Assembly (NCBI GenBank): GCA_028817405.1
Contig: JAPPPS010000089.1
Location: 9,947 to 73,946, forward strand
From: Gammaproteobacteria bacterium
GTDB lineage: Bacteria; Pseudomonadota; Gammaproteobacteria; Arenicellales; Poriferihabitantaceae
DNA length: 64,000 nucleotides
Direction: 5' to 3'
In this document: positions 6,545 through 64,000 of the stretch, in pieces
Layout: each line of letters starts with the position of its first letter
Position numbering within the stretch: position 1 is the first letter of the stretch
Made by a program: the position numbers and the translations under genes
Notes under the pieces: model-generated
What the model was told of the DNA's origin: nothing
What the model saw: only the letters and a program-made list of their open reading frames with translations
Databases searched by the model: none

Positions 6545-6578
6545 TCTCCCGTCACCCCCGCAGTCTGTTAAGCGGGGG
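6545..6578. repeat. 33-bp hairpin-containing repeat (second copy at 55713-55745)
   Basis: tctcccgtcacccccgcagtctgttaagcggggg compared with ctcccgtcacgcccgcagtttgttaagcgggcg. The stem is cccgc/gcggg around gtYtgttaa. This copy contains the trpF stop codon. Confidence 0.7.
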
Positions 6579-7326
6579 CGGCGGCGGTGGAATCGACGGT
6601 GTTGGCGGCGGTGACGGTGTTATCGACGGTGACGGTCTCTCGCGCGACATCGGTGACGGTGGAATCGGCCGCGGCGGTGACGGTGGCGTCGGCGGCGGCG
6701 GCCGCGCGGCAGAACGCGCGAATTTTATCCGCGTCCTTGCGCCCGGCCTCACCGTCAACTTCCACGCCGCTGCTGACATCGACCGCAAACGGTCGCACCT
6801 GCGCGATGGCGGCCGCGACATTATCCGCTTGCAGCCCGCCGGCCAGAATCAACGGCCGGCGCCGCGCACCGTCATGCGCGGCGCGCCGCCAGTCAAAAGT
6901 TTCGCCGCTGCCGCCATAAACACCGTCGCGGTGGGTGTCCAACAACAGCGCGCGCGCGTTGGGAAATTCCGCCGCGGCCGCGGATAAATCCCCGTCGCCG
7001 GCCCCCGACCTGACCCGCAACGCCTTGATATACGGCACGCCAAAACCGGCGCAGAATTCGTCCGTCTCCTCACCGTGGAACTGCAAATAACCGGGGCGCA
7101 CTTGCTTGACGATGACGCGCACCGTCGCCGCGTCCGGATTCACCAACACCGCCACCGTGGCGACAAAAGGCCCGGCCGCGCCGGCAATCGCCGCGGCCTG
7201 CGCCAATTCCACATGCCGCGCACTCGGCGGATGAAAGACCAGGCCGACGGCGTCGGCGCCGGCCGCGACCGCCGCGGCCGCGGTGTCGACATCGGTGACG
7301 CCGCAGATTTTAATTCGAGTGCGCAT
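6568..7326 (-). CDS. trpF: Phosphoribosylanthranilate isomerase, with a repeat-derived T/V/A-rich C-terminal tail
   Basis: MRTRIKICGVTDVDTAAAAVAAGADAVGLVFHPPSARHV... from ATG 7326. The last ~45 aa (ATVTAAADSTVTDVARETVTVDNTVTAANTVD) are encoded by GACGGT-type repeat DNA. Confidence 0.9.
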   Translation of the reverse strand: MRTRIKICGVTDVDTAAAAVAAGADAVGLVFHPPSARHVELAQAAAIAGAAGPFVATVAVLVNPDAATVRVIVKQVRPGYLQFHGEETDEFCAGFGVPYIKALRVRSGAGDGDLSAAAAEFPNARALLLDTHRDGVYGGSGETFDWRRAAHDGARRRPLILAGGLQADNVAAAIAQVRPFAVDVSSGVEVDGEAGRKDADKIRAFCRAAAAADATVTAAADSTVTDVARETVTVDNTVTAANTVDSTAAAPA

Positions 7327-7391
7327 GGCGGTTTGGCAAGTGGGCCGGCGCGCCGCACAAACGCGGCGGCGCGGCGGCGCGGCGGCGGATT

Positions 7392-8189
7392 CTACCAAAA
7401 CCGGCAGGCCGGCGGCGGCGGCGGCAGACGGTGGCGCGGCGCGTAGGTGACCCGGGTTAAGTACAGGCCGGCCGCGGGCGCGGTGGGGCCGGCCGCGGCG
7501 CGGTCGCGCCCGGCCAATATCTCGCCGGCCCATTCCGCGGCCTCATGCCCTTCGCCGATGCGCAGCAGCGTGCCGGCGATGTTGCGCACCATGTGATGCA
7601 GGAATCCGTCGGCGCTGAAGTCCAGCCAAATCCACGCGCCGGCGTGGCCTAAGTCGATGCGGCGGAGAGTGCGGAAGGGATGCTTCGCCTGGCAGTGCGC
7701 GCCGCGAAACGCGCTGAAGTCATGCCGCCCGATGAGCGCGGCCGCGGCGCGGCGCATGGGTTGCACCGCCACCGGCATCGGATGCCACGCGACCCGCTCG
7801 CGCAGATAAGTCGGCGCCACCGCGCGGTTGAAAATGACATAACGGTAGCCGCGCTCGAAGGCGGCGAAACGGGCGTGGAAGTCGCCGCCGACTTCGCGCG
7901 TCCACAGCAACTTGATGTCGTCCGGCAAGTGGGTGTTGACGCCGCGCAGCCATTCGTGCGCGGAGCGGCGCGCGCGGGTGTCGAAGTGGATGACTTGCCC
8001 GCCGCCATGCACGCCGGCGTCGGTGCGCCCGGCCGCGCTCACGCGGGTGTCGGCGTCGGCGACGCGGCTGACCGCGCGCTCGACCCGCGCCTGCACCGAC
8101 GGCGCGTTGGCTTGATACTGCCAGCCGCTGTATGCGGCGCCGCAGTATTCCACGCAGGCGGCCAGGCGGCGAATGGGTTTGGCGGGCAC
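7392..8189 (-). CDS. truA: tRNA pseudouridine(38-40) synthase TruA
   Basis: CVEYCGAAYSGWQYQ and the catalytic motif AAGRTDAGVHGGGQVIHFDT. The ORF is open to 8315 through repeat DNA. GTG 8189 is a plausible start; the true start is uncertain. Confidence 0.85.
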   Translation of the reverse strand: MPAKPIRRLAACVEYCGAAYSGWQYQANAPSVQARVERAVSRVADADTRVSAAGRTDAGVHGGGQVIHFDTRARRSAHEWLRGVNTHLPDDIKLLWTREVGGDFHARFAAFERGYRYVIFNRAVAPTYLRERVAWHPMPVAVQPMRRAAAALIGRHDFSAFRGAHCQAKHPFRTLRRIDLGHAGAWIWLDFSADGFLHHMVRNIAGTLLRIGEGHEAAEWAGEILAGRDRAAAGPTAPAAGLYLTRVTYAPRHRLPPPPPACRFW

Positions 8190-8311
8190 GGTGGGGATGG
8201 TTGGTGACGGTTCGGTGACGGTGATGGCGATGATGGCGACGATTCGGCGACGGTGGTGACGGTTCAGCGACGGTGACGGTGATGCTTCGGCGACGGCGCC
8301 GCCGCCGGCGC

Positions 8312-61192: not shown

Positions 61193-61292
61193 GGCGGCGG
61201 CGGCGGGCGGCGGGCAACCGGCGACGGGCCCCGGCGCGCGGCAATGTTACCCCATCGCCGAGCGCCGACGCTCGCCCGCGTATAATCGCGCG

Positions 61293-62201
61293 ATGAAATC
61301 AACGCCATCGGCCGCGCCCGCGCCCGGCAAGAATCCAGAAGCCGCCGGCGACCAATCCCGCGCCGCTTTCGCCATCGACATGTTCGGCCGCCGCTACCGT
61401 TTGGCGGCCGAAGACCGGGCGTTCTGGACCAAGGTGGCGGCCGGCGCATGGGAACGCGACACCTTGCGGTTTTTCGCCCGCGCGCTGGATGGCCGCCGCG
61501 GCCGCGACGGTTCCGGCGCCCCCGACGCCGACTCGGTGTGCGTGGATGTCGGCGCGTGGATTGGCGCAACCGCGCTGTTCGCCGCGCCGATGTGCGGCAC
61601 GGTGTATGCGCTCGAGCCGGACCCCGCCGCCTATGAGCGGTTGCTGGCGAACCTCCGCATGAACGCCGTCGCCAACATCGTGCCGTGCCACGCCGCGCTC
61701 ACCGCCGCCGACGGTTGCGTGTGTTTAAGCAACCACCGGCATTTCGGCAACAGTATGACGCGCGCGCAGGCGGCGACCGGCGACGGCGCCGGTGACGGTA
61801 CCGACGCCGGTGACGGTGCCGGTGAAAACGGCGACGGCGACATCGGCGGCAACCGCGCCACGGTGTTGGGTTTGCGCTTGGCGTCGTTCATCGCGTGGTG
61901 GGGAATCGCGCGCATCGACTTGCTGAAAATCGACATCGAGGGCGGCGAGTTCGCTCTGCTGCCGGCGCTGCTGGAGTTGCCGATGCGCCTCCGGCCGGTG
62001 GTTCATCTGTCGCTGCACGCGCCGTTTTTTCCGGCCGCTGAGCGCGCGGGCAAGTTGGCGGCGGTGGCCGAGTTGGCGGCGCAATACGCGCATCTCTACG
62101 ACCAGAACAACGCGCGCATCACCGCGCGCGACATCACCCAAAACCCCGACTACCGCGACAAATTCCAAGTCGTTGCGATGAGCGCGCGCGCGTTGTTTTA
62201 G
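61293..62201 (+). CDS. FkbM-family methyltransferase, with a GDG-type insert
   Basis: VCVDVGAWIGATALFAAP...YALEPDPAAYERLLANL...IDLLKIDIEGGEFALL. The insert is GDGAGDGTDAGDGAGENGDGDIGG. Confidence 0.75.
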   Translation: MKSTPSAAPAPGKNPEAAGDQSRAAFAIDMFGRRYRLAAEDRAFWTKVAAGAWERDTLRFFARALDGRRGRDGSGAPDADSVCVDVGAWIGATALFAAPMCGTVYALEPDPAAYERLLANLRMNAVANIVPCHAALTAADGCVCLSNHRHFGNSMTRAQAATGDGAGDGTDAGDGAGENGDGDIGGNRATVLGLRLASFIAWWGIARIDLLKIDIEGGEFALLPALLELPMRLRPVVHLSLHAPFFPAAERAGKLAAVAELAAQYAHLYDQNNARITARDITQNPDYRDKFQVVAMSARALF

Positions 62202-62377
62202 TGGTGGCCCGGCGGCGGCGTGGGTGACGGTCGCCCGCAACGCCGCGGCCGAAACGCCATGACGGTCGCGTCCCGGTCGCACCCGGGCCGGCCCGTCGCC
62301 GCCCATGCTCCCCCGCCGCATGGCATACAATCACAACGCGCGCTCCCGCCGCCACCACTGACCACCCGCCACCGCTC

Positions 62378-64000
62378 CATGCCCCAGCCGCTGCTTTCCA
62401 TCCGCGATTTGCGCGTCCGCTTCGCCATCCACGGCACCACCTTGGAGGCGGTGCGCGGCGTGTCGTTCGACATCATGCCGGGCGCGACCGTGGCCTTGGT
62501 CGGCGAATCCGGCTCCGGCAAGTCGGTGATTGCGCGCGCGATTATGGGCTTACTGCCGGACAACGCCACCGTCACGGCCGGGCAAATTCTGTTCTCTTGC
62601 CCGCAAAAAGGCGTCGACACCGTGGACACCGTCGCGCTCGACCCGCGCGGGCGCGCCATGCGCGATTTGCGCGGCGGCAGTTTCTCGCTGATTTTCCAGG
62701 AGCCGATGGTGTCGCTGTCGGCGCTGCATACCATCGGCGACCAAATCTCCGAAGCGTTGTTTTTGCACCGTGATGTCGGCCGCGCCGAGGGCATGGAACT
62801 GACCCGCGAAATGCTGGAAATCGTCGGCTTCCCGCATCCGCGCCAAGCGTTGAATCGCTATCCGTTCGAGTTGTCCGGCGGCATGCGCCAGCGCGCCATG
62901 ATTGCGATGGCGCTGATTTGTCACCCGGCGCTGCTGATCGCCGACGAGCCGACCACCGCGCTGGATGTCACCATTCAAGCGCAAATCCTCAAACTCATCG
63001 CCAAACTGCAAACCCAACTCGGCATGGCGGTTCTGATGATTACGCATGACTTGGGCGTGGTGGCGAATGTCGCGCGCGAGGTGGTGGTGCTGTACCACGG
63101 TGAAGTGATGGAGCGCGGCGCGGCGCAGCGCATCTTCACCGCCGCGCAGCATCCATACACCCGCGCGCTGTTGGCCGCGGTGCCGCACTTCAGCATGGCC
63201 GCGGACGAACGGTTGACGCCGCTGCGCGAAATCAAAACCGATGTCGGGGAATTTTTCCGCGGTAAGAAACGTGACGGCGATTCCAAAACCGAATCCAACA
63301 ACGGTGACGGTGTCGATTCCAAAACCGAATTCGATGCGCAACCGGCGCAACCGACAATTCCCATTCTCCGCGTGCGCGAAGTCTGCCGCAGTTTCGGCGC
63401 GCGCAGTCAGGCGTGGTCGTTGGGCGCGCCGGCGGTGGCGGTGCGCGCGGTCGACCGTGTGAGTTTTGATTTAATGCGCGGCGAGTGTTTGGGTTTGGTC
63501 GGCGAAAGCGGCAGCGGCAAATCCACGCTCGGCAAACTCATCGCGCGCGCCATTGAAGTCGACAGCGGCCACATCGAGTACATTGATGGCGATGGCGACG
63601 GTGATGGCGACGACGACGGCAACGCCAAAACCGAGTCGGTGGAATCGCTCGGCGAAGCGCAACTGTTCAACTACCGTTGCAAAGTGCAATACATCTTTCA
63701 AGACCCGGTCGGCTCGTTGAACCCCAGCATGACGTTGTTCGACATCATCCGCGAGCCGATGGAAATCCACCGCCTCGGCGGCCACGATTATCAAGTCGAA
63801 ACTTGCAGCGAACTGATGCGCTTGGTCGGCCTCGACCCGCGCCACTTGCGCCGCTACCCGCACAGTTTTTCCGGCGGCCAGCGCCAGCGCATCGGCATCG
63901 CCCGCGCCCTGGCGCTGCAGCCGGACTTGCTGATTTGCGACGAGCCGGTGTCGGCGCTGGATGTGTCGATTCAAGCGCAAGTGCTCAACCTGATGAAGGA
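62378..64000 (+). CDS. YejF/oligopeptide-type ABC protein with two fused ATPase domains (3' end beyond the window)
   Basis: Not in the ORF track because the frame never closes. ATG 62378 gives [15 protein letters not shown]. First domain [35 protein letters not shown]. Second domain [35 protein letters not shown]. Confidence 0.9.

Follow-up and report, generated by a model that had tools for sequence, protein, structure and literature searches.

We analyzed a 64-kb stretch of DNA (contig JAPPPS010000089.1; this whole stretch is called the window below) from a gammaproteobacterium, in which genes and spacers carry many short tandem repeats. Most likely, its genome is dense in such repeats, with units of 6 to ~78 bp that are mostly derived from GGTGAC/GACGGT, that grew in place by slippage, and that were filtered by selection. 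An earlier note on this DNA, made from the sequence alone, had reported GACGGT/GGTGAC repeats in many genes and spacers, and array calling, motif coverage, and enrichment over Markov models confirmed this. In a genome scan with GlmS, the window fell among the Gammaproteobacteria known as sponge symbionts, and nearest to it were metagenome-assembled genomes (MAGs) of Ca. (Candidatus) Poriferihabitaceae, with 74 to 75% amino acid identity, followed by MAGs of Ca. Spongiihabitans and Arenicellales. Judged by this sequence comparison, the source is an uncultured sponge-associated gammaproteobacterium of the Ca. Poriferihabitaceae/Spongiihabitans clade.

Tandem arrays were called with tandem repeats finder (TRF), and a score of ≥50 was used for array counts. 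By this measure, the window contains 35 merged arrays of head-to-tail copies, with units of 6 to 78 bp. The motif class was defined as the 12 rotations of GACGGT/ACCGTC, and its counts were set against 100 Markov simulations of the window. Hexamers of this class were seen 775 times, compared to 247 ± 21 expected from a dinucleotide model and 392 ± 26 from an order 3 model, and 9-mers of the perfect GACGGT periodic pattern were seen 159 times (4.7 and 11.3 expected, respectively). For 12-mers, 43 were observed, whereas 0.1 (dinucleotide), 0.2 (order 3), and 9.2 ± 5.1 (order 5) were expected, the order 5 model already including the GACGGT-class hexamer counts, and for 15-mers, 16 were observed with 0 expected from the dinucleotide and order 3 models. 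The enrichment analysis over composition that the earlier note had proposed, run here on the window, was thus positive, and base composition, which the note had named as a possible source of the hexamer and repeat frequencies, does not explain them, for the 12-mers not even at order 5. Of all hexanucleotide units repeated in tandem in the window, ACCGTC/GACGGT ranked first, with CCGCGG behind it, despite the A and T in the unit and a G+C content of 64%. Essentially all of the places listed earlier carry tandem arrays by TRF and the motif by coverage per site. Pfam confirmed the identities of the genes concerned (TruA, oxoprolinase, DctQ, DctM, DctP, GHKL ATPase, MutY, GlmU, GlmS, a PotC-like permease, Hda, FkbM, TrpF, and a YejF-like double ABC ATPase), in agreement with the view that the affected proteins are otherwise canonical housekeeping proteins; in translation, the arrays appear as GDGDG, TVTVT, DN-rich, or HR-rich stretches inside them.

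Errors of assembly or sequencing, or high G+C content together with codon bias, could also be held responsible for such a pattern. However, assemblies made independently agree without a difference where they overlap, the dctQ and dctP arrays included. An ENA/SPIRE metagenome scaffold matches the window with 100% identity over 7.3 kb, and a Logan assembly obtained independently from another run does so over the 4.8 kb that were checked (12073–16837), a segment containing both arrays. Arrays do trouble assemblers, as seen from a scaffold of a conspecific strain (L088) that has an N-gap adjoining its rsmA array, and some of the short 9-mers sit in conserved VTV codons, for example, in KSVTVE at the C terminus of GlmS. 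On the other hand, homologous arrays of differing length were present in many samples, and Markov models up to order 5 fell short of the 12-mer count. Moreover, every coding array keeps its reading frame open into conserved domains, which excludes an assembly artifact and chance; we therefore regard this explanation as extremely improbable.

Each of the five frames of the GACGGT unit that are free of stops was in use, and the unit occurred in either orientation with respect to the genes. In a census of 56 perfect runs of at least 9 nt, the GD frame was the most common, with 21 runs, followed by the two TV frames (ACC GTC, 11 runs; ACG GTG, ~10 runs after removal of an untranslated frame upstream of glmS), HR (5 runs), and PS (3 runs), with 6 runs unassigned; the sixth frame, CGG TGA, holds a stop and was absent. 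The readings given in the earlier note were GDGDG, TVTVT, SPSPS, and RHRHR. GD, TV (in both orientations), and HR were indeed found in genes, but SPSPS was present only in the noncoding array upstream of truA, and the PS frame in real genes was seen in one short instance. The surviving frame seems to suit its surroundings in the protein.

The predominance of GD, which is also the dominant frame in long coding arrays, would be expected if the peptides were selected for themselves, that is, if Gly-Asp-rich and D/N/T-rich segments were adaptive as acidic solubilizing or cation-binding loops for life in a sponge or as host interaction motifs, with the DNA repeat as a by-product. The codons speak against this. 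GGT made up 44 of 104 Gly codons (42%) in the G/D/N-rich inserts but only 129 of 1344 (10%) elsewhere in the same genes, a fourfold difference in the use of a codon that is rare in these genes, where GGC is the dominant Gly codon outside the inserts. Since a peptide selected for itself would take the preferred codon, the excess of GGT in the inserts argues for an origin at the DNA level. The TV and HR frames share the GACGGT unit as well, and so do spacer arrays with nontriplet periods, which is also at odds with selection of a peptide. In fact, 23 of the 27 arrays located wholly in genes had only periods that are multiples of 3, whereas none of the six intergenic arrays did (periods of 8, 20, 13, 8/16/24, 22, and 13 bp). 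This agrees with the earlier statement that coding periods are multiples of 3 and the intergenic period is ~8 bp, the latter being the period of the array between the TusA gene and rpiA.

The window was aligned with the strains L083 (95% identical in nucleotide sequence over 10.9 kb) and L087 (97% over 20 kb). Indels in well-supported genes measured 63, 54, 51, 42, 30, 15, 12, 9, 6, and 3 nt, all multiples of 3; the only coding indels outside this rule were a single nucleotide at the stop of glmU and 11 nt in an open reading frame (ORF) that is itself doubtful. Intergenic indels, in contrast, measured 1, 2, 11, 14, 22, 23, 45, and 148 nt. TRF arrays covered 9 to 11% of the aligned DNA and contained 25 of the 40 strain indels (binomial p = 2e-16). 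Whole units were gained or lost: the 42-bp difference from L087 is one GlmU unit, a 9-nt indel (CGACGGTGA) relative to L087 lies at the hairpin insert of glmS, and the oxoprolinase P0255 lacks one unit of 13 amino acids (39 bp) but otherwise matches that of the window with 100% identity. Steps of a GD dipeptide were seen in the GlmU and GlmS arrays, and the 51- and 30-bp indels span compound units. Thus, strains that are 95 to 100% identical differ by whole repeat units.

The same was apparent in protein clusters of at least 90% identity drawn from many samples, in which lengths ranged from 502 to 535 amino acids for GlmU, 646 to 651 for GlmS, 265 to 273 for Hda, 444 to 458 for MutY, 505 to 512 for the GHKL protein, and 210 to 221 for DctQ; OplA was found with 1329, 1342, or 1360 amino acids, and TrpF was invariant at 252. 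Alignments placed the length differences within the repeats. Among 11 strains, the GlmU tail had 2 or 3 copies of the 14-amino-acid (42-bp) unit and a variable GD count. With tandem copies, strain copy number polymorphism concentrated in the arrays, and indels of whole units, the arrays are simple sequence repeats (SSRs) or variable-number tandem repeats (VNTRs). That both length and sequence of the inserts vary among strains that are 97 to 100% identical is another argument against selection of the peptides.

The inserts were missing from orthologues at ≤89% identity. The alignment with orthologues suggested in the earlier note therefore shows that they are not conserved linkers. The 58-amino-acid tail of GlmU was missing in 9 relatives. 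In GlmS, the inserts sit after residue 183 and between residues 215 and 220 of the Escherichia coli protein; most relatives are without both, and in several sister lineages the hairpin is occupied by inserts of another kind. The window oxoprolinase has 1342 amino acids versus a family norm of ~1205 to 1215; an oxoprolinase with 89% identity (P0004) lacks all four inserts, and two with 96% identity (P0002 and P0003) share the insert sites but have other lengths and unit sequences. Perfect GACGGT 12-mers were not found in any of the 28 related or homologous glmS loci tabulated (L003–L030). A more distant lineage, P0315, represented by locus L090 (80% GlmS identity), does have GGTGACGGT-derived arrays in GlmS, where the hairpin holds a 50-amino-acid insert, and in the 16S rRNA dimethyltransferase RsmA, where a GHGE/GDGD insert of ~95 amino acids was found (L090 9995-10270). 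Loci L092 and L084 (P0313/P0004 lineage, 84 to 89% identity) contained no arrays but only short "DGDDG" seeds at the GlmS and RsmA sites, and RsmA of L092 has a normal length of 266 amino acids. The absence of inserts in lineages that are 84 to 89% identical again does not favor an adaptive peptide. Taken together, the absence from sister lineages and the length variation among near-identical strains show that the arrays are young and hypervariable and that they behave as coding VNTRs.

Two further observations were made in relatives. In the conspecific strain L088 (~18400-18700), RsmA carries a (GDGDGDGA)n insert of ~55 amino acids, and a run of N follows directly after the array. A Ca. Poriferihabitaceae MAG of another genus (OZ245364.1; L005 10711-10789) has its own D/N/K-rich insert of ~50 amino acids with a 36-bp repeat in the same GlmS β-hairpin, and it expands different units, for example, AATCAC. 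The repeat-prone state thus recurs in the clade with lineage-specific motifs.

The window had 5.5 arrays per 10 kb, and conspecific strains had 6.0 to 6.6. In 20 Gammaproteobacteria that do not belong to the sponge-symbiont clade, the homologous glmS locus had only 0 to 1.5 per 10 kb, so the density is indeed unusual, as had been claimed for bacteria in general. Values in other members of the sponge-symbiont clade were intermediate or high, with 5.0 (L005), 3.7 (L011), 3.2 (L010), and 1.4 to 1.8 (L003/L004) arrays per 10 kb. The motif as such is not unique to the clade, since (GGTGAC)4 was found in at least 120 metagenome contigs, and uniqueness was therefore ruled out; a cluster density metric applied to these contig loci, which had been chosen for the motif, did not discriminate. 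It is density and targets, rather than the motif itself, that are unique here.

The position of the inserts in the proteins was determined from domain limits and, for GlmS, from an AlphaFold2 (AF2) model built with 45 aligned homologues (mean predicted local distance difference test score [pLDDT], 84; predicted template modeling score, 0.71). The only internal segments of the model with a pLDDT of <50 were residues 196 to 201 and 239 to 254, which are the two inserts. The former lies between strands 190 to 193 and 206 to 209, the latter between strands 230 to 234 and 258 to 262, and the GlmS inserts are thus modeled as low-confidence loops between β-strands. This is in line with the proposal in the earlier note that inserts be sought in surface loops or at termini. 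The arrays in TrpF, GlmU, DctQ, and the PotC-like permease are C terminal, that in Hda is in the N-terminal region, those in MutY and the YejF-like protein include interdomain linkers, and that in DctP is in the hydrophobic core of the signal peptide. No Pfam family covers the inserts, and in the ORF of GlmU read from 28707, the Hexapep matches stop at residue 461 and do not reach the tail. Membership in a curated family of protein repeats, such as RTX/HemolysinCabind (GGXGXD) or the hexapeptide LbH, was rejected because there was no Pfam coverage and the inserts are missing in orthologues. For an adaptive peptide, too, the lack of a confident structure in the AF2 model and of a Pfam family, and the fact that the carriers are cytoplasmic housekeeping enzymes with unrelated functions, are unfavorable, and we consider such an origin unlikely. 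Most likely, the added peptides are tolerated disordered passengers and not functional modules.

We propose that the arrays lengthen and shorten in place by slipped-strand mispairing at replication, possibly accompanied by unequal recombination between units. Purifying selection would clear arrays that shift the frame, produce the stop-containing CGG TGA frame, or break the fold. The survivors in genes would then be in-frame arrays at tolerant sites (surface loops, interdomain linkers, termini, and the signal-peptide core), the long ones mostly in the hydrophilic Gly-Asp frame, and in spacers, GACGGT-type repeats could take arbitrary periods of 8, 13, 20, and 22 bp. Loops of ≥6 nt would probably escape MutS-dependent repair, as follows from the specificity of MutS in E. 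coli. Relaxed selection in a host-associated population may let slightly deleterious inserts persist, hence the high density. The view expressed in the earlier note, expansion at the DNA level under selection rather than selection of a peptide, is supported by four independent tests, on frames, codons, periods, and strain indels.

The same note had spoken of an invasion. The arrays are real, but no mobile sequence was involved: in a self-BLAST of the window, different loci shared ≤37 nt, the longest array-to-array match being 37 nt at 89% identity or 21 nt at 100%. Since nothing longer than 37 nt is common to different loci, the arrays grew in place, and a mobile element or ectopic conversion was rejected. 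Repetitive extragenic palindromes (REP), bacterial interspersed mosaic elements (BIME), and miniature inverted-repeat transposable elements (MITE) were also rejected, since there are no full-length copies across loci and the arrays mostly fold no better than shuffled sequences. Since GTGAC is a near palindrome, a hairpin-driven, CNG-like expansion could be expected, but (GGTGAC)6 folded with only −2.8 kcal/mol (z = 0.04) and its complement with 0 kcal/mol, and this candidate was dismissed. In DNA folding, native arrays were mostly no more structured than shuffles, only the plus strand of glmU reaching a z of −2.0. Neither an Rfam match at gathering score nor a tRNA (ARAGORN) was detected in the window; together with periods of 6 to 78 bp without unique spacers, this excluded structured RNA and clustered regularly interspaced short palindromic repeats. 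Finally, phase-variable contingency loci do not fit, because 23 of 27 coding arrays have periods, and the well-supported genes have indels, that are multiples of 3 and because the genes are housekeeping genes.

Could a mechanism specific for the motif be at work? The expansion of GGTGAC/GACGGT could be driven by a trans-acting factor, such as a site-specific nickase or an enzyme of restriction-modification, by a defective polymerase or helicase, or by a DNA structure peculiar to this hexamer. One hexamer class does top the tandem repeat spectrum, the unit is expanded in two lineages, that of the window and that of L090, but not in L092/L084, which are at an intermediate distance, the relative L005 expands other units, and a Type ISP restriction-modification gene in the window is a candidate for such an enzyme. 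However, the ordinary folding of (GGTGAC)6 and the occurrence of (GGTGAC)4 in at least 120 metagenome contigs do not support a special mechanism. Furthermore, unrelated units are also expanded and polymorphic, namely, a 33-bp unit in mutY, a 27-bp unit in accD, a 12-bp unit encoding DNRN in the tails of DctQ and PotC, and 13-, 22-, and 45-bp repeats in spacers, which points to a generally repeat-prone genome rather than to a motif-specific machine. A motif-specific mechanism is therefore quite improbable, and it is unlikely that the single hexamer dominates because of an enzyme that nicks, modifies, or translocates along DNA in a sequence-specific manner or because of a lineage-specific defect of replication or repair at this sequence. 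If such a mechanism did exist, the core proteome of every symbiont lineage would bear a "signature" repeat particular to that lineage.

Several points weigh against slippage followed by selection as a full account. Plain slippage gives no reason for the dominance of one hexamer, and slippage as the molecular step is inferred from the pattern. The spread among close lineages is patchy, with arrays present at 80% GlmS identity and missing at 84 to 89%. The whole analysis covers the 64-kb window and a few related loci, a small sample of the genome. Long coding runs (≥12 nt) are mostly in the Gly-Asp frame (7 of ~10), so the peptide matters as a filter. In addition, the homologous loops of several related lineages hold acidic D/G/N-rich inserts, as seen for the GlmS hairpin, the oxoprolinase loop, and RsmA, which is what an adaptive peptide would predict, and some benefit at the peptide level is conceivable.

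Short tandem repeats in genes of all functional classes are known from Burkholderia mallei, in which 76% of the 12,547 SSRs lie in coding regions and 6- and 12-nt units add or remove amino acids via slipped-strand mispairing (PMC1574311). The window resembles it in copy number change by slippage, in frame-neutral 6/12-nt units, and in strain polymorphism. It differs in that one hexamer family dominates and the inserts reach 25 to 85 amino acids in core enzymes; moreover, B. mallei is a pathogen, and its coding SSRs include 7- and 8-nt ones, which shift the frame, whereas in the uncultured sponge symbiont the arrays of well-supported genes are almost all in frame. Low-complexity regions of prokaryotes have been described as proliferating short repeats that evolve fast on short time scales and are lineage specific, and in that survey housekeeping and essential clusters of orthologous groups were typically without low-complexity regions and without paralogues (Persi et al. 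2023, PMC10120016). The arrays share the origin from short repeats, the fast evolution, and the lineage specificity, but here the carriers are GlmS, GlmU, TrpF, MutY, Hda, oxoprolinase, and, in relatives, RsmA. Contingency loci of Neisseria, Haemophilus, and Mycoplasma are likewise tandem repeats made hypermutable by slipped-strand mispairing, but they switch surface or restriction-modification genes on and off by frame or promoter shifts; the arrays studied here keep the frame and lie in housekeeping genes, and no switching is implied. Housekeeping proteins of Plasmodium falciparum contain in-frame, fast-evolving, Asn-rich inserts in surface loops that probably stem from slippage or recombination in the DNA and are probably largely tolerated. 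That organism is an AT-rich eukaryote with Asn/Lys-rich inserts, whereas the window is from a bacterium with 64% G+C and Gly/Asp-rich inserts, and the resemblance is one of workings, not of kinship. In the literature on Poriferihabitaceae, Spongiihabitans, and low-complexity repeats of sponge symbionts, we found no description of these arrays. They are real and, as probable replication slippage repeats, mechanistically ordinary, but they are unusual in their density, their bias toward a single motif, and their housekeeping targets.

The individual arrays are as follows. In TrpF (gene 6568–7326), 18- and 24-bp arrays with GACGGTGACGGT on the minus strand (6590..6701) encode a TV/A-rich C-terminal tail of ~40 amino acids, as seen from TRF and translation; the PRAI Pfam domain stops at residue 206 of 252. 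The array at 8203..8296, with 20-, 9-, and 6-bp periods, had been assigned to the 5' end of truA (as 8205-8290). It is instead noncoding and part of the oplA–truA spacer, since truA starts with GTG at 8189, and the relatives L083 and L085 call TruA at 265 amino acids; 11- and 14-nt indels were found in this spacer relative to the 95%-identical strain L083. The 5-oxoprolinase gene (8312–12340) contains three arrays on the minus strand. The first is a short GD array of 14 amino acids (10355..10395) with a 15-bp indel relative to L083, in a loop where other lineages hold unrelated inserts. The second is (GTCACC)n with 6- and 36-bp periods (10761..10842), which encodes 24 amino acids and has a 51-bp indel relative to L083. 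The third is a nested 18/39/78-bp minisatellite (11900..12120; sense unit AAC ACC GTC ATC GAC AAC) that encodes an N/D/T/V/G-rich insert of ~85 amino acids in the N-terminal domain; its length differs among P0001, P0252, P0255, P0002, and P0003, and it is missing in P0004.

The C-terminal tail of DctQ (…HEHHDHRHRDRGDHDGDNRDNNRDNNRDQC; 13838..13930, minus strand) consists of three copies of the 12-bp unit GTCGCGGTTGTT plus GACGGT runs, overlaps the dctM start, and is polymorphic between strains. The DctP signal peptide (15521..15556, minus strand) has (CGGCGA)6 with one GACGGTGACGG run, which encodes the hydrophobic core VPVTVAVAVA. The GHKL ATPase gene contains a D/G/N-rich array (GDGDDDGDDDDNDNDVNGGGDGD) at 18794..18870 on the minus strand. 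In the interdomain linker of MutY (22885..22925, plus strand), a run in the ACG GTG frame encodes GAVTGATVTGK; this site is polymorphic, with 3- and 6-nt indels relative to L087. mutY also has repeats of non-GACGGT units, 12- and 18-bp units at 22129-22229 (PEVSPPPE… at the N terminus) and three copies of a 33-bp unit at 23078-23176 (RSQPSPPAKP, inside the NUDIX-like domain), and both vary in copy number between strains (54-bp indel and loss of 11 amino acids). The spacer between the convergent TusA and rpiA genes carries (GACGGTGY)n with an 8-bp period (25801..25880), and L087, which is 97% identical, is without the 148-bp segment that holds this array.

In GlmU (gene 28782–30353), ~3.2 copies of a 42-bp unit (GGCGACGGTGACGGTGGCAAAACCGGTGACGGTAACGCGGCC; 30188..30326, plus strand) form the GD-rich C-terminal tail of ~58 amino acids. 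The GlmS loop insert (30940..30975, plus strand) is (GGTGAC)n encoding the 8 amino acids GGDGGDGD, and the β-hairpin insert (31060..31135, plus strand) is GACGGTGACGGTGAC with flanking low-complexity sequence encoding ~25 amino acids (GDGDGDSETGDHGNQSNENRGAR). The noncoding stretch 45013–45075, described earlier as a GACGGT array, proved to be a different repeat with a 13-bp period, TGTTGCGTCACGG, in which the motif matched 12 of 63 nt. At the C-terminal end of the PotC-like permease (gene 47345–48715), the 12-bp unit GACAACCGYAAC (DNRN) with GACGGTGAC was found at 48640..48712 on the plus strand. This protein (47345-48715, plus strand) has a C-terminal extension of ~180 amino acids past BPD_transp_1, in which an apparent extra hydrophobic segment (LLIALVFVAGLGSAYFAG) precedes the repeat tail. 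The GACAACCGYAAC (Asp-Asn-Arg-Asn) unit is common to the tails of two unrelated inner membrane proteins, DctQ (13840-13874, minus strand) and the PotC-like permease (48640-48712, plus strand), and is in the sense orientation in both. The N-terminal region of Hda (59900..60020, plus strand) does contain a low-complexity stretch rich in D, H, R, G, and N, as noted earlier, but its GACGGT content is weak (16 of 121 nt). The FkbM-type methyltransferase has an 18-bp array (CGCCGGTGACGGTACCGA; 61775..61850, plus strand) encoding ATGDGAGDGTDAGDGAGENGDGD. The YejF-like ABC protein has, on the plus strand, a short GD run, NNGDGVDS, in the linker between its ATPase halves (63285..63320) and an 18-bp array encoding 13 amino acids inside the second ABC domain (63584..63625).

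In-frame minisatellites of other composition are present in the accD tail (5564-5617; 27 bp, Ala/Pro-rich), in an M48 peptidase gene (24233-24354; 24/39 bp, Ala/Gly/Thr-rich), and in another gene at 50429-50501 (33 bp, Pro/Arg-rich), and the repeat load thus extends past the GACGGT unit. A small palindromic element with the termini GGAGTCCAGAGTC…GACTCTGGACTCC around ~50 to 60 nt occurs in three intergenic copies (27584-27662, 55436-55482, and 55745-55823) that are ~91% identical and of which one is inverted. This element resembles a MITE or REP and has no relation to the GACGGT arrays. The gene at 55905-59156 (minus strand) encodes 1083 amino acids with HSDR_N, N6_Mtase/Eco57I/MmeI methyltransferase, and Type_ISP_C domains and is predicted to be a single-polypeptide Type ISP/IIG-like restriction-modification enzyme. 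Directly downstream of glmS, L090 (5253-8266; P0315 lineage) has two N6_N4 DNA methyltransferase genes and a PLD-family (PLDc_2) gene, likely a restriction-modification cassette, which is missing at that position in the window. A glutathione S-transferase gene appears to be present in duplicate, with an EamA transporter gene between the copies; the identity of the two is ~89%, and they have short 3' flanks in common (window 36160-36782 versus L087 19685-20308; window 38567-38611 versus 36759-36818).

In MAGs and their annotation, arrays of this kind can leave gaps in the assembly, cause starts or stops to be miscalled, make proteins seem too long, and suggest "novel domains" that are spurious. 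At the same time, they are VNTR markers by which strains of an uncultured sponge symbiont can be tracked across hosts and samples, and they constitute a natural experiment on insertion-tolerant loops of GlmS, GlmU, oxoprolinase, RsmA, and MutY. Their patchy spread among sister lineages opens the question of which change in replication, repair, or population size makes a genome repeat prone. A bacterium can thus bear dense, fast-evolving low-complexity inserts of up to ~85 amino acids in its core enzymes, a pattern usually tied to Plasmodium.

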